From Candidatus Nanoarchaeia archaeon (GTDB lineage: Archaea; Nanobdellota; Nanobdellia; SCGC-AAA011-G17; DATDVL01): a stretch of 64,000 nt of DNA. Where the stretch lies: assembly GCA_035289925.1 (NCBI GenBank), contig DATDVR010000005.1, forward strand, positions 112,916 to 176,915. Direction: 5' to 3'. This document shows positions 3,052 through 50,539 of the stretch, in pieces (positions within the stretch are counted from its first letter, which is position 1; each line of letters begins with the position of its first letter). The position numbers and the translations under genes were made by a program. The notes under the pieces are model-generated. The model ran no database searches and was not told where the DNA came from. It worked only from the letters and a program-made list of their open reading frames with translations.

Positions 3052-3092
3052 CAATAATACTTAGTGGGAATTTCTAAAACAATTTTTCTTTT

Positions 3093-3551
3093 TTATATCT
3101 CTTTTTGCCATACATAAACTCTCAATACTTTAGGAGAGTTAGCTAGCGGATCTTTTACCAAGAAAATTGAATTTGCATAAACACTCTTGTCAAAAGGAAC
3201 GTCTTCTCCTATGCATGTAGCGACTTGGTTGCAGACCTCGCATGCAAAGTCGTAGTTGAAAGGAAGCTCTTTTCTTATAAATAGATTAATATCACAACTA
3301 GGGTTTGTTTCTGAAATTGCCTGGCAGTTTGTTCCAGCTTGATCCTGAAGATTGTAGTTAAAAATGCAGTCTCTGAAAGTTGAGTTGTACAATATTTCAT
3401 TCAATATGAACTGCTGAGATGATTGAACATTTTCTGGGATTCTATTTTCAACCTCGGCACGCTTTGGCAAAATAAAAAATATAAAGCTAAATATCAGGAT
3501 TATAGCCACAACTGCTTCCAATGTCCTTATGAAACCTTTTTTATTTACCAT
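3093..3551 (-). CDS. pilin-like protein (type IV pilin-like N-terminus KKGFIRTLEAVVAIILIF)
   Basis: N-terminal basic residues, Gly, then a hydrophobic helix with Glu near +5/+6: class III/type IV prepilin-like. Last gene of the pilus locus. Confidence 0.55.
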   Translation of the reverse strand: MVNKKGFIRTLEAVVAIILIFSFIFFILPKRAEVENRIPENVQSSQQFILNEILYNSTFRDCIFNYNLQDQAGTNCQAISETNPSCDINLFIRKELPFNYDFACEVCNQVATCIGEDVPFDKSVYANSIFLVKDPLANSPKVLRVYVWQKEI

Positions 3552-16725: not shown

Positions 16726-17736
16726 ATGAAAAATAGTCCTAAAGATATCGGAAAGAAAAACGTACTAAGAGATTCGGAGAATCTGGATCCTAAAGGTTTG
16801 AAAGAAGTTCATGGATACGACTTCAATAATGGGGTAAATTATGATAAAATGTTTGAAGCTTACGCATCAACAGGATTTCAAGCAACCCACTTAAATGAAG
16901 CCATTCAATTGATTAAAAAAATGAGAGAGGAAAAATGCACTATCTTTTTAGGATACACTTCAAGCATGATTTCATCTGGCTTAAGAGATGTTTTCAGATA
17001 TTTAGTTGAACATAAATTTGTTGATGTTGTTGTAACAACTGCAGGTGGAATTGAAGAAGACATAATTAAATGCATAAAACCATTTTTACTTGGAAAGTTT
17101 TCAATGTCTGGTGAATATCTAAGAGAGAAAGGTATCAACAGGGCTGGAAATGTCTTGATTCCTAATTCCAGATACTGCGCTTTTGAAGATTTTTTTGTTC
17201 CAATTTTAAAAGAGATTGTTGAAGAACAGAAGAAGACTGGAAAAGTTTATGCAACAAATGACTTAATATGGAAACTGGGAGATAAAATAAACAATAAAGA
17301 GTCAATCTATTACTGGGCAAACAAAAACAAGATACCTGTTTTCTGTCCTGCAATAACTGATGGTTCTATTGGGGACATGATGTACTTCTTTTCCTATGAC
17401 AATCCAGAATTAAAAATTGATTCTGTTGCCGACATAAGAAAATTAAACGACATTGCAATAACTGCCAAGAAAACTGGACTGATTATATTAGGTTCTGGTG
17501 TAGTTAAGCACCACATCTTGAATGCAAACATGATGAGGAATGGAGCAGATTATACAGTTTATGTGAATACTGCTGAAGAATATGACGGAAGCGATGCTGG
17601 GGCTAGACCAGATGAAGCTGTTTCATGGGGGAAGATACTTCCAGATGCTAGAGCTGTAAAAGTACATGCAGATGCAACTTTAGTATTTCCTATAATAGTT
17701 GCTGAAACTTTTGCTAAGGAAAAAAGCCTAGGGTAG
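16726..17736 (+). CDS. dys: deoxyhypusine synthase
   Basis: DHS blocks [66 protein letters not shown]. Confidence 0.9.
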
Positions 17737-17810
17737 GAATTGCACCTACGACCTCAGGTTAATTCGCAAATGATACGAAACCCGTGCTCCACTAATTAAG
17801 CTACCTAGGC
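17725..17810 (-). tRNA. tRNA-Thr (anticodon CGU) with 13-nt canonical intron (37/38)
   Basis: Acceptor GCCTAGG/CCTAGGC, D-stem GCTT/GAGC, anticodon stem CGGGT/ACCTG. Loop TTCGTA then intron TCATTTGCGAATT (17761..17773); TTCG pairs with intron CGAA, flanked by 3-nt bulges (a BHB-like fold). T-loop TGCAATT with G55, as in the other Thr tRNA. Confidence 0.65.
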
Positions 17811-29724: not shown

Positions 29725-30838
29725 TCAAGGATAGCTAATATTCAGAAGCTTAAGATATTTGTTTAATTCAGCGGTTGAGATTTCACCTGGAAAGTAATCA
29801 TTAAGCAGTTTTATTACTTTCTTTCTTAGACTAAAGGTGTTTGCATTTTGAGCATAACCGTTCCAGCCGCAGAAAGAACTGTATATCTTATCATAAGTAA
29901 TTCTTCTAGAATCGTAAAGCTCCTTGTATTTTTCAATTCTTTTAGACAATTTCCTCTTATTTATCTTTCTTAGAAGCTTGTGGTAATAAAAAATCCTAAA
30001 ACCTAAAAAATTAATGCCTTTATTCAAATTTATTATTTTAGATTTACTAGGATGCAGTTCCAATTTCAAGTTTTCTTTTAAAAAATCATCAATCGCCCCC
30101 CCCCCTTATTTTTAAAGTTTCTTTAGAAGAATCTAAAATGATAAAATCATCAACATACCTAATATAATATTCTGCTTTTAAATTATGTTTTACGAATTGG
30201 TCTAGTTCATTAAGATAAATATTAGCAAAAAATTGTGATGTCAAATTACCTAATGGCATTCCTATTCCTTTTACTTTAGAATTGAAATTATTTAAGATCT
30301 TGCTTATAAGCCAAATAACTTTTTCATCTTTAATCTTGTTCTTTAAAACATTCAATAAAACTTCATGTGAAACTTCGTCAAAATAATGCTTAATATCAGC
30401 TTTAAAAACATAGCATTTTTTCCTGTTATTTTTACTTACTTTTCTCTTGAAATAATCAAATCTATTCAAGGCCTTTAAGTTTCCTTTGCCTTTTTGATTG
30501 GCGTAGGAATCATGAATGAAAGATTTACTTAAGATAGGTTCTAAAATATTGCACAAAGCGTGATGAACTATTCTGTCTCTAAAATCTGATTTAGAAATTT
30601 TTCTGGTTTTTGGATCTCTTAATATAAATGTTCTTAAAGGTAAAGGATTGTAAGTGTGAAACAATAATTCTAATCTTAGTTCTTCCAAATTTTTATCCAA
30701 ATCCTTTTCAAATTCCAATACATAAAGCTTTTTAGATTTTCTTTTCTTAGCTCTCTTATAAGCCATCAAAAGATTAGTGTAGCTGCAAATCTGCTTCCAC
30801 AAGTTATTGTAAGTCTTCATTGTTAAAAGCCATAGCAT
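29725..30838 (-). CDS. DGR reverse transcriptase, split by a frameshift in a C10/G10 homopolymer (ORFs 30089..30838 + 29725..30069)
   Basis: RT domains 1-7: …RDRIVHHAL…, FKADIKHYFDEV, DGR-diagnostic motif 4 LGNLTSQ (SQ rather than SP), YVDD box YIRYVDDFII, thumb …GINFLGFRIF…. The two ORFs abut at the run of 10 C (30096..30105). Confidence 0.85.
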
Positions 30839-30846
30839 TTGTTAGG

Positions 30847-30932
30847 TTATTCCAACATAACGCCCATTGTTGTTGAAGTTGTTGTCGCCATTAAGACCGT
30901 TGTTGTCATCGTTACCAACATAAGACAAGCGC
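30847..30932 (-). repeat. DGR template repeat (TR)
   Basis: 86-bp repeat 9 bp upstream of the RT start. Its minus-strand sense is AAC-codon-rich (…GNDDNNGLNGDNNFNNNGRY…). It aligns with VR 31273..31358 with 17 mismatches, all at TR adenines. Confidence 0.9.
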
Positions 30933-31135
30933 AAGCAAAATAGCTCTCTTACCTTCTATATCACTGTTGCTTCACATTTTCGACTAGTTACTAAGTGTTG
31001 CAACTGAATTTTATGGCTACTCTATGCCCTAGTAAAAGAGCGTGTAGCCTAACAATTCTTAACTTCATAACAATAAGTTACTCATTAGTTAAGCTATGCT
31101 AAGGCAAAATAACGATAGAATCTAATCTTATAAAA

Positions 31136-31972
31136 TTATTGGTAAAGCTTTATTATTGTCTTTTCAAAATCTTCTCTTGTTGAATCTGCAACGAAAGGTT
31201 TTGAAACTCTTAAAATCTCTTCTAAAGTTGGTGTCTTTATTTCCTGTGGAGATTTTTGCGCGCCGACTGCACGTACCCCAACAAAACGCCCATTGCCGCT
31301 GAAGTAGTTGACGCCATCAAGACCGCCGAAGTCAACGCCACCAACATAAGACAAGCGCCCTAAATTCTTTTGTTTTATATCTTTAGCTTCATTAAACCTA
31401 TGCCAGCTTCCTAGTGTATTAACTCTATAAGTTTCCGTTGCTTTCTTGAAATAAGCTGAAGCCCTTTCAACGCTGCCAGATTTTGCTAAAACTATGTCAT
31501 TTTTTATCCATTCTTCTTGTGTAAGCCTTTCTGACTTTGCTTTTTGCGCATTGCTTAAAGGCATTATAACTGCATAATTTCTTGGAAGCTTTGAATCTCC
31601 ATTTTTTCTTAAATCTTTTATAGAAACTACTGCCCTTTCATCTGATTCTTCAAGAACGGCTTTAAGCTCGTCATCTGTGACTTCAACAAAACCATAATCT
31701 AGTTGGTTTTTTCTTTTTGCCCTTATTGTATCTGGAGTGAATACCTTTGTTCCATGCTCGATTACTGCAAGCTTACTTCCTTTTGAAGCATATTCGGCTC
31801 CATTTGGAATATACCAAGTATTGAATGGCAGTTCATTATTAATTCTTGCCTGAAGTATCTCTGGAGAAGTAAATATTGTCTTAAGCTCTCTTTGAGCTGT
31901 TTCTAAAGCAACAGCTAAAACTGAATTATAAACTGGCAATAGTTCTCTTTTCTCTAGAGTTGAGTTTAGCAT
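31136..31972 (-). CDS. DGR target (variable) protein with C-terminal FGE/C-type-lectin-like fold
   Basis: C-terminal RVNTLGSW…(VR: LSYVGGVDFGGLDGVNYFSGNGRFVGVRAV) resembles FGE-sulfatase/CLec-fold DGR targets (RVxRGGSW…GFRxV). The VR sits at aa about 199-227 of 278. Confidence 0.85.
   Translation of the reverse strand: MLNSTLEKRELLPVYNSVLAVALETAQRELKTIFTSPEILQARINNELPFNTWYIPNGAEYASKGSKLAVIEHGTKVFTPDTIRAKRKNQLDYGFVEVTDDELKAVLEESDERAVVSIKDLRKNGDSKLPRNYAVIMPLSNAQKAKSERLTQEEWIKNDIVLAKSGSVERASAYFKKATETYRVNTLGSWHRFNEAKDIKQKNLGRLSYVGGVDFGGLDGVNYFSGNGRFVGVRAVGAQKSPQEIKTPTLEEILRVSKPFVADSTREDFEKTIIKLYQ
31273..31358 (-). repeat. DGR variable repeat (VR) inside the target gene
   Basis: 86 bp, 69/86 identical to the TR; all 17 differences are plus-strand T in the TR (an A in the coding sense) against C, A or G in the VR. 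Confidence 0.9.
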
Positions 31973-32150
31973 AATAAAATAAACATTTTACTAGTATATA
32001 AAGCTTGTGATTTTGTAGTTACTATTAAGTAATATAAAATAATTTCAATTTAGACGTAAGATTTTCTGAAAATTGCAGTAAAAATTAATAAAGACTAAAA
32101 TATTATTAAAAATAGTAAAATATATAAACTATAGTTCATTACTATAGACT

Positions 32151-32366
32151 ATGGTTACTACAATTCAAATAGGGGAAAGGACAATGGAACAACTTAAAAC
32201 AATTAAAAAGACTCAAGGACTTAAATCATATGAAGAGGTAATACAGGAACTTTTGCTTAAATCAAGGACTAAAAAATCTTTTTTTGGATTTATGGGTAAA
32301 TCAGGAAATCTACCAAAAATGCTTAAAGAACTACAGGAAGAAAGGAGAGCAAGTGACAGATTTTAA
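32151..32366 (+). CDS. VapB-like antitoxin
   Basis: 71-aa protein immediately upstream of, and overlapping, a PIN-domain gene. Confidence 0.5.
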   Translation: MVTTIQIGERTMEQLKTIKKTQGLKSYEEVIQELLLKSRTKKSFFGFMGKSGNLPKMLKELQEERRASDRF

Positions 32367-32718
32367 TTTTATTGACAGTTCTATTTGGTTAGCCTACTTA
32401 GAAGGTGAAGAAAATGTAGTTCCTTATATAGACAATGCTACAGGAGTTGCCACTTCAGTTATAACATTATTTGAAGTAGCTAAAAAATATAAAAAGTTAA
32501 ACTATCCAATTCAAAAAATAAAAGCTTGCATTTCTTTAATTAAGGAAAGGAGTGTCTTATTCAATGTAGATGAAGATGTAGCGACTAATGCGATCAATTT
32601 TTCTAATTCCTTAGCTATGGCAGATGCTTTAATCTATGCAACTTCTCAACTAAATAAGTTTAAATTAATCACAAAAGACAACGATTTTAGAGGCATGAAT
32701 AATGTTTTGGTAATTTAG
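32353..32718 (+). CDS. VapC-like PIN-domain toxin
   Basis: PIN residues FIDSSIW…LEGE…ADALIYATS…LITKDNDF. Probable GTG start at 32353 within ORF 32284..32718. Confidence 0.65.
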   Translation: MTDFNFIDSSIWLAYLEGEENVVPYIDNATGVATSVITLFEVAKKYKKLNYPIQKIKACISLIKERSVLFNVDEDVATNAINFSNSLAMADALIYATSQLNKFKLITKDNDFRGMNNVLVI

Positions 32719-50426: not shown

Positions 50427-50539
50427 GGGCCTGTAATTTAACCAGGATCAGAATGCGAGGCTTCGGTTTGGCCTTTGGCTAGATTTAATGCCTATCTTGG
50501 AGAAACCTTGATATCCAGGTTCAAATCCTGGCAGGCTCA
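50427..50539 (+). tRNA. tRNA-Arg (anticodon UCG) with ~38-nt intron at 37/38
   Basis: Acceptor GGGCCTG/CAGGCTC (one G·U), D-stem ATTT/GAAT, anticodon stem CGAGG/CCTTG, loop CTTCGG, T-arm CCAGG-TTCAAAT-CCTGG. Exon CTTC pairs with intron GGAG next to 3-nt bulges (BHB-like); intron about 50467..50504. Confidence 0.55.

Follow-up and report, generated by a model that had tools for sequence, protein, structure and literature searches.

The 64,000-nucleotide stretch analysed here (contig DATDVR010000005.1, positions 112,916 to 176,915, from a Candidatus Nanoarchaeia archaeon; hereafter the window) carries a diversity-generating retroelement (DGR) whose reverse transcriptase (RT) gene is broken by a run of ten guanines. 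This G10 tract, with a probability that can be put at roughly 0.55, would be a selected, slippage-prone stochastic on/off switch of the retroelement, of the kind known as phase variation. The case is built from the anatomy of the element, the arithmetic of its reading frame, the conservation of the tract, purifying selection on both halves of the gene, the enrichment of such tracts in one gene family, and the presence among relatives of in-frame alleles and of alleles out of frame in both senses. The evidence base consists of consensus assemblies of uncultured organisms and, to judge from the record names, many of the samples belong to related groundwater datasets.

A G10 tract in the reverse transcriptase gene

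On the forward strand, the surroundings of the tract read ...caatcgCCCCCCCCCCttat..., with the C run occupying exactly positions 30096-30105. An initial annotation had reported a run of ten cytosines here in AT-rich DNA, which is correct: the GC content of the window is 33.6%, and C10 is the sole G/C run of more than 5 nt in the 64 kb. In dinucleotide-preserving shuffles, G8 matches averaged 0.13 per window, and the three overlapping matches of a G10 were seen in none of the 100 shuffles. The other homopolymers of at least 7 nt in the window are all A/T and mostly lie inside long open reading frames (ORFs) that read through them. Within this class of homopolymers, C10 alone ends a long ORF, with 248 codons upstream and two downstream.

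When the tract was rebuilt in silico, G9 gave a single ORF of 370 aa and G12 one of 371 aa; at G7, G8, G10, G11 and G13 the RT is truncated at 248-253 aa. As in homopolymeric contingency loci, a small length change in a coding tract sets the frame. The G9 fusion bears out the initial proposal that the two ORFs flanking the tract (249 aa at 30838..30089 and 114 aa at 30069..29725) together form a full-length RT. The further expectation that a change of one nucleotide would join them holds for the loss of a nucleotide (and for the gain of two) and fails for the gain of one. The thumb does lie in the second ORF as had been suggested, but the C-terminal part is not confined to it. RT coding sequence also fills the 26 nt that separate the tract from the TTG at which that ORF was called, and the in-frame sequence continues straight through the tract (AIDDFLKEN...).

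The fused RT matches Pfam RVT_1 over residues 77-282 (E = 6.9e-25) and contains the GMPLGNLTSQ and YVDD motifs of DGR-type RTs. Together with the pair formed by a template repeat (TR) and a variable repeat (VR), these features confirm that the gene split at the 10-nt homopolymer encodes a DGR RT. It aligns across the tract with no gap to 29 full-length DPANN RTs, and the RGGA of the fused protein corresponds to segments such as KNKEK or YKDK in relatives. The alignment to the closest solved RT chain, 8ub7_A, which we take to be the Bordetella phage DGR RT, is likewise gap-free through the tract (E = 9e-45). Translation probably starts at the ATG at 30820 (MKTYNNLW), which matches the homologues.

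A paralogous cassette with the same tract

A second DGR cassette (locus L003, 2903-5094; also L004-L008 and L010) has an intein-bearing CDC48 gene on one side and PolB on the other, and comprises a target gene of 266 aa, a TR/VR pair and an RT that is 86% identical to that of the window. The spacing between TR and VR is 426 nt in both cassettes, and the 15 TR/VR mismatches of the second cassette are all at A in the TR. The two cassettes probably reside in one genome, given their close accessions (HLD15350.1 and HLD15626.1), their occurrence in the same samples, their equal GC content and flanking genes that are not duplicated.

All seven of the paralogue loci that were fetched (L003-L008 and L010, from six samples) have G10 at the homologous site. 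Because of a 2-nt indel just upstream of the tract, the in-frame length of the paralogue is G11 or G8. The window copy thus needs the loss of one nucleotide and the paralogue the gain of one, so that the two G10 copies are out of frame in opposite senses and no single systematic sequencing error explains both. Neither RT copy has any lesion besides its frame.

Purifying selection has acted on both sides of the tract. Upstream, the comparison of the paralogues gives a synonymous divergence (Ks) of 0.87 and a ratio of nonsynonymous to synonymous divergence (omega) of 0.083; downstream, in the frame that is open when the gene is ON, the values are 0.76-0.86 and 0.12-0.13, respectively, and the other two downstream frames contain 11-18 stops. 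Low omega in the ON frame, with stops in the others, indicates that, over most of the divergence of the two copies, ribosomes read the C-terminal part in the fused frame. About half of the synonymous sites have changed between the paralogues, and the tract is uninterrupted in both. GGG makes up 10% of the glycine codons in the window, and in 80 related RT genes 13 of the 24 Gly-Gly pairs are encoded by GGG-GGG, where approximately 0.6 would be expected. The tract is therefore over-represented and maintained against composition and codon bias and, judged by these codons, the conserved feature is the nucleotide homopolymer and not a requirement for glycine.

Poly-G tracts in DPANN reverse transcriptases

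The wider family was represented by 80 DPANN loci from GTDB species representatives, with RTs 50-63% identical to that of the window; the locus search keeps the best unbroken matches and so is biased toward in-frame alleles. G/C runs of at least 8 nt occur 11 times in 93 kb of RT sequence (with 60 nt on either side) and once in 378 kb of flanking sequence (binomial p = 1.8e-7), a rate about 45-fold higher in the RT genes (0.118 vs 0.0026 per kb). The lone flanking run is about 340 nt upstream of an RT, and nearly all of the runs are G on the RT sense strand. In 80 phage DGR RT loci (33-50% identical), no run of at least 8 nt was found inside the RT.

The tracts fall at a small number of sites. 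Site A, which is the site of the window tract, just before A-I-x-D-F-L, is also occupied in L036 (G7), L040 (G9) and L083 (G9). Site B, in the segment just upstream of the GMPLGN motif, is occupied in L053, L054, L058, L071 and L043, with lengths of G7-G11, and a third site at the N-terminus holds G10 in both L029 and L087. In a neighbour-joining tree, site-A tracts occur in two clades that are separate from each other, and site-B tracts are scattered over five lineages, which points to repeated origin. In this biased set, the tracts are in frame wherever the frame is readable. Mutagenesis of the adjacent RT by the DGR itself was considered as the source of the G runs, and was judged insufficient: adenine mutagenesis gives both G and T, and the tracts are approximately 550-750 nt downstream of the TR.

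Several of these loci have further irregularities. In L043 (3546-3576), the G11 in the RT is followed by a 10-N scaffold gap and then by 'ggggcgaa', an assembly break that is expected if reads disagree on the length of the tract. Two related RT genes have frame breaks away from G tracts (L054 ~3065-3105 and L077 ~3032), and in L054 a tandem duplication of about 19 nt (AGCTAGAAAAGGAAAAACA twice) lies at the break. Noncoding runs of G9 (L085 2652-2660) and G7 (L053 203-209), with similar flanks (cgcttt..gaaat-Gn), are found approximately 340-530 nt upstream of RT genes and may belong to an RT-associated RNA region. Three phage DGR contigs have G9 runs outside the RT, about 1.8-2 kb downstream of it (L105 5308-5316, L114 2909-2917 and L116 3661-3669), and these may represent unrelated phase-variable phage genes.

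Frame states among relatives

Tract-length polymorphism among near-identical genomes was observed in two related lineages. In the first, a metagenome-assembled genome (MAG) from NCBI (L040) has G9 and an intact RT of 347 aa, and a Joint Genome Institute (JGI) metagenome contig (L171) has G10 and a product of 258 aa that ends in ...LLSWGGGDRGFFN*; besides the tract indel, the two differ by one mismatch over 3.8 kb. In the second, L178 has G9 and an RT of 365 aa, whereas in L177 a G10 splits the RT into 223 and 154 aa, and again there is one mismatch besides the tract indel, over 1.8 kb.

Truncated forms were sought with the N-terminal 182 aa of a site-B RT, a query that returned short proteins only. 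Of 120 short RT fragments, 78 stop a few residues past a stretch of two to six glycines (GG to GGGGGG) at site B, with tails that represent both shifted frames of KGMPLGNLTSQFFAN ('...NAFRK.N.P.FC' and '...ACLLAT*'); the tails were classified by regular expression, with verification in DNA for five lineages. Contigs longer than 5 kb (up to 127 kb) hold 37 of the fragments, of which about 30 are tract-truncated and thus not contig-end truncations. The DNA checks of site-B fragments revealed G9 needing +1, G11 needing -1 and G11 needing +1; the lineage with G9 needing +1 was found in six samples, and a 79%-identical relative also has G9. Among approximately 186 full-length relatives, site B is present in frame as GG in 25 and as GGG(G) in 11.

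By these sequences, all three frame states are well populated. Extrapolated very roughly from these lists, the ratio of OFF to ON alleles would be about 1-2:1, as unconstrained length drift would give. The lists are biased, since the locus search keeps the best unbroken matches and the protein search appears to return proteins of query-like length. Two members of one 90% cluster (P0224 and P0256) differ by an 18-nt in-frame indel beside the site-B tract (NWGGGD vs NLPAGQIGGGGD). A tract-split G11 DGR (L186/L187, 1-210 and 2640-3615) is flanked by conjugation-type genes encoding PrgI-like and TraC/TraG-like ATPase proteins, which suggests that some such DGRs ride on mobile elements.

Assemblies of the locus

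The identical 249-aa RT product is present on at least nine contigs, and G10 recurs in seven other assemblies of the window locus, with sources that include MEGAHIT-style k141 contigs, ANAN16 scaffolds, JGI data and Logan contigs of SRR3989344 and SRR3989338. A single contig (L009/L175; ENA ERZ27254752 k141_1421439) reads GGGGGTGGGG, with a G>T change inside the tract at about window position 30100, and is otherwise identical over 8,750 nt. This interruption is either a miscall within the tract or a variant that would stabilise the OFF state. A scan of JGI metagenomes for length variants, using the sequence adjoining the tract, returned one contig, which was already in the set. A/T runs of 7-8 nt in the window are mostly read through in long ORFs, and so homopolymer errors are not a general weakness of the assembly.

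VRs were compared across assemblies for signs of ongoing diversification, and at the level of consensus sequences each cassette has one and the same VR throughout. Contigs of ERZ28563625 have clusters of 12-14 single-nucleotide polymorphisms in the N-terminal part of each target gene (window 31796-31925 compared with L001, and L003 3136-3292 compared with L005). These are outside the VR, not adenine-specific and mostly synonymous, with 3-6 amino-acid changes, and look like strain variation or recombination.

A proposed switch and its alternatives

With the tract at G10, a ribosome would meet a stop two codons past it and release a 249-aa protein that ends soon after YVDD. This product would lack the C-terminal third of the RT and would make no mutagenic cDNA, leaving the VR of the lectin-fold target fixed. 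Replication slippage that removes one G or adds two would, in a minority of cells, restore an RT of 370 or 371 aa, respectively, and such ON cells would resume adenine-directed diversification of the target until a further slip returned the gene to OFF and locked in a useful variant. Most cells would hold a proven receptor-binding variant with the RT off, and rare revertants would re-open diversification. The combination of two OFF cassettes and invariant VRs fits the locked state. On a broader scale, there is perhaps an even chance that DPANN archaea have repeatedly evolved poly-G contingency tracts in DGR RTs, with a heritable stochastic frame switch gating targeted hypermutation.

Three explanations had been offered in the initial annotation: a sequencing or assembly error, a recent inactivating mutation and a slipped-strand on/off switch. 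The switch is the best supported of these, because the tract is kept in the paralogue, both parts of the gene are under purifying selection, the enrichment is specific to RTs, and in-frame alleles coexist with both out-of-frame alleles. Error is disfavoured, since G10 appears in many assemblies and the out-of-frame lineages need opposite corrections; recent inactivation remains a rival.

A number of observations weigh against the switch. At the window locus itself, all contigs have an uninterrupted G10 save the one that reads GGGGGTGGGG, and G9 is seen only in a protein, the fused 370-aa form of the window RT (P0123) in a read-level Plass protein assembly of run SRR3989344. P0123 speaks for the switch but carries an extra substitution, and a companion Plass protein of the paralogue needs a C>G miscall beside the tract; both could stem from error-containing reads, and so are weak signs of heterogeneity. 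The two G9/G10 pairs among relatives are differences between assemblies and could be homopolymer miscalls. Across samples, mostly from related groundwater datasets by record names, tract length is constant in five lineages (G10, G10, G9, G11 and G11), which is steadier than one would expect of a very fast switch. Two deeply diverged lineages (P0337 and P0369; Ks of at least 1) share an out-of-frame G9 with an omega of 0.064 downstream, a situation that also fits long-term decoding of an out-of-frame gene. The invariance of the VRs, consistent as it is with a locked state, equally fits a dead element. Finally, the switch presupposes frequent length changes that can revert and are passed on to descendants, an adaptive value of switching, and a sufficient rate of G-tract slippage during DPANN replication.

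Some of these points could instead indicate leaky decoding, the chief alternative, in which the genome is stably out of frame, a little full-length RT is made by RNA-polymerase slippage or by ribosomal +1/-1 frameshifting, and the tract acts as an expression attenuator. The constant consensus lengths and the out-of-frame G9 shared by diverged lineages would be expected, a tRNA-Gly can re-pair in either direction on a homopolymer, and there is a precedent in the frameshifted DGR RT of the Quimbyvirus phage, whose VR still varies at adenines (PMC8008677). This account is nevertheless rather unlikely, since the two cassettes and other lineages need opposite shifts and many relatives are in frame, leaving no fixed recoding direction or conserved length of the sort that marks programmed frameshifting. 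Nor was a stable, potentially stimulatory RNA structure detected 3' of the tract, in the 121 nt starting at it (z-scores of 0.02 and 0.56 at the two cassettes). The G9/G10 differences between near-identical strains are at the DNA level, no VR variation is seen between assemblies, and bacterial transcriptional slippage is documented mainly for A/T runs.

Non-adaptive decay, with the tract a mutational liability, both RT copies recently inactivated and the out-of-frame alleles in the databases representing dead DGRs, is also an improbable reading, even though both cassettes are out of frame in every assembly with their VRs fixed, and out-of-frame alleles are numerous, with NCBI annotating the pieces as separate proteins. 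Dead genes would not be expected to be free of other lesions or to retain an intact downstream ORF with an omega of 0.12-0.13 at a Ks of 0.8, or of 0.064 as in the other out-of-frame pair. A liability should be purged by synonymous GGA or GGT codons, one such change being enough to abolish a tract and GGG being so sparingly used, yet the tract persists in both paralogues, and tracts arose at the same sites in separate clades. The TR, the RT-16 RNA described below and the probable promoter block are still conserved as well.

It is highly unlikely that the true tract is G9, the gene is intact and the tenth G is a homopolymer sequencing or assembly error. Illumina indel errors climb in long G runs, and the G>T change in one assembly, the scaffold gap beside one related G11 tract and the Plass errors near the tract are all of a kind with such trouble. 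However, G10 was obtained in the seven other assemblies by several pipelines, and for the paralogue the error would have to run the other way (+1 instead of -1). Among other lineages, G9 and G11 alleles are out of frame too, in both senses, and ORFs are unbroken at all other homopolymers of the window. Nor can miscalled lengths account for the existence of the tracts or for their enrichment in RTs. A systematic +1 error, which might have been suspected from three OFF alleles with G10 where G9 is in frame, is refuted by the other lineages, as the G10 of the second cassette and the G9 of P0337 and P0369 need +1, and of the two G11 lineages one needs +1 and the other -1.

It is scarcely credible that the two ORFs are translated separately and that the polypeptides assemble into an active RT in the manner of the split genes of Nanoarchaeum. 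DPANN archaea are known for split protein genes, and a TTG or ATG is found shortly after the tract in the downstream frame. On the other hand, near-identical strains carry the unsplit gene, the split point is a homopolymer with no conserved start signal, and the nine codons that lead from the tract to the TTG belong, in the ON frame, to conserved RT sequence.

Retroelement anatomy and genomic neighbourhood

Apart from the RT frame, the DGR is complete (Table 1). All 16 TR/VR mismatches fall on adenines of the TR (10 A>G, 6 A>T), and the VR lies in the C-terminal part of a target with a C-type lectin (CLec) fold, as is characteristic of DGRs. The target protein has no Pfam match; its AlphaFold2 (AF2) model, built with 49 homologues, has a confidence (pLDDT) of 92.1, and the best Foldseek match of the model is 5ioo_A, a Nanoarchaeota CLec variable protein (E = 2e-13, TM 0.81). 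No Avd gene was detected: no ORF separates the target from the RT, and the neighbours are TrmB, VapB and a PIN protein. Avd is not universal among DGRs.

Table 1. Coordinates of the DGR and adjoining features in the window (aa, amino acids)
Feature	Position	Strand	Remarks
G10 tract (C10 on the forward strand)	30096..30105	-	Inside the RT gene; observed length out of frame (OFF), G9 and G12 ON
RT N-terminal ORF, 249 aa	30838..30089	-	Fingers/palm through YVDD; ends KIRGGGD*, two codons past the tract
RT C-terminal part in the ON frame (AIDDFLKENLKLELHP... to stop)	30095..29725	-	Omega; alignments to 29 RTs and to 8ub7_A
114-aa ORF called within the RT C-terminal part	30069..29725	-	Starts at TTG
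DGR target gene, 278 aa, AvpA-like variable protein with C-type-lectin fold	31972..31136	-	AF2 model and Foldseek
VR, 85 nt	31358..31274	-	Target residues 205-233 of 278; 16 mismatches to TR
TR, 85 nt	30932..30848	-	AAC-rich, 26 adenines; repeat comparison
RT-16 RNA (Rfam RF03019)	30935..31103	-	90.7 bits (gathering score 50); whole model covered (1-158 of 158)
Block 5' of the target gene (approximate)	31980..32035	-	Alignment of the two cassettes, by eye
VapB-like antitoxin and PIN-domain toxin pair	32151-32718	+	Directly upstream of the target gene; Pfam

The RT-16 RNA fills the spacer from the target stop codon to the TR, and in an alignment judged by eye this spacer is visibly more conserved between the two cassettes than the adjoining target coding sequence. 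The TR adjoins the RT start (10-28 nt), and any structured part of the DGR RNA is thus upstream of the TR and not in the spacer between TR and RT. The N-terminal two-thirds of the two targets are almost unrelated; conservation is seen in the VR, at the C-terminus, in the RT-16 spacer and in a probable promoter block. This block, of about 50 nt, is 5' of both target genes (on the minus strand of the window, and at ~2850-2900 in L003), is nearly identical between the cassettes and includes a palindrome, AGTTACT(N4)AGTAACT, and a TTTATATA box. It is probably a shared promoter/operator.

A gene for a TrmB-family regulator is directly 3' of the RT in the window. The archaeal genes of the neighbourhood are those for ArgRS, an ATP-dependent DNA ligase, TrmB and VapBC, and an identical protein in NCBI belongs to a Candidatus Nanoarchaeia MAG. 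Elsewhere in the window, two unusually long tRNA matches, at 50427-50539 (plus strand, 113 nt) and 17725-17810 (minus strand, 86 nt), could be intron-containing archaeal tRNA genes.

Implications and comparison with known systems

If the tract does act as a switch, archaeal DGRs would have their first described regulatory mechanism, and homopolymer phase variation an unusually clear archaeal example. Homopolymer contingency loci would then extend to DPANN archaea and to a new functional class, that of a mutator enzyme. An open question taken up by Roux et al. is what holds DGRs in check once a useful variant has arisen, so that it is not mutated away at once, and a homopolymer that sets the RT frame would be a simple and testable mechanism for alternating DGR activity. 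Many RTs annotated as 'partial' or 'pseudogene' would then be parts of DGRs that work and can be switched. In practice, any gene caller or DGR survey that insists on an unbroken RT ORF will overlook or mislabel a substantial share of DPANN DGRs; one search alone yielded at least 78 distinct clusters, at 90% identity, of tract-truncated RTs.

Nanoarchaeota and DPANN DGRs with AvpA-type targets, the RT-16 RNA and homopolymer phase variation are all already known. The window element resembles the described Nanoarchaeota and DPANN DGRs with AvpA-type targets (PDB 5IOO) in its LGNLTSQ and YVDD motifs, AAC-rich TR, adenine-only changes, CLec target and lack of an adjacent Avd, and differs in the internal poly-G that sets the reading frame of its RT. 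Surveys of DPANN DGRs are cited in PMC5758913. The searchable literature yielded no report of DGR RTs with homopolymer tracts, with phase variation or with frameshifts linked to a tract; the DPANN survey of Paul et al. (2017) is outside that literature and could hold one. The RT-16 RNA (RF03019) is a known motif, matched over its full length with no difference seen, and is not part of the frameshift finding.

The poly-G contingency loci of Campylobacter, Helicobacter, Neisseria and Haemophilus provide the closest likeness in mechanism. They share with the window system a coding G run of 7-11 nt in an AT-rich genome that is toggled by changes of +/-1, a tract kept despite codon bias, the occurrence of ON and both OFF frames among relatives, and an intact downstream ORF. 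Unlike in those loci, the host is an uncultured DPANN archaeon, and the window tract is in a hypermutation enzyme, not in a surface or restriction-modification gene. Here one mutable element would gate another. Homopolymer phase variation has been inferred computationally for prokaryotes, archaea included (PMC2831843), and has been reviewed (PMC11868660).

Two other systems offer partial parallels. Insect endosymbionts have frameshifted genes that are rescued by transcriptional slippage at long poly(A) tracts. There, as here, long homopolymers are found in genes of AT-rich reduced genomes, with out-of-frame alleles and intact downstream ORFs, but the A tracts are spread over many genes whereas the DPANN G tracts are almost confined to one gene family. 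In the gut phage Quimbyvirus, the DGR RT is encoded in three overlapping frames, which were read as two programmed ribosomal frameshifts; earlier predictions, by the account of the same authors, had all shown DGR RTs as single ORFs (Benler et al. 2021, PMC8008677). Its RT is likewise not a single ORF, and it shows the hallmark adenine mutagenesis. The Quimbyvirus VR, however, is variable among near-identical genomes, whereas that of the window is invariant, and the break in the window RT is at a homopolymer whose length and frame vary among relatives.

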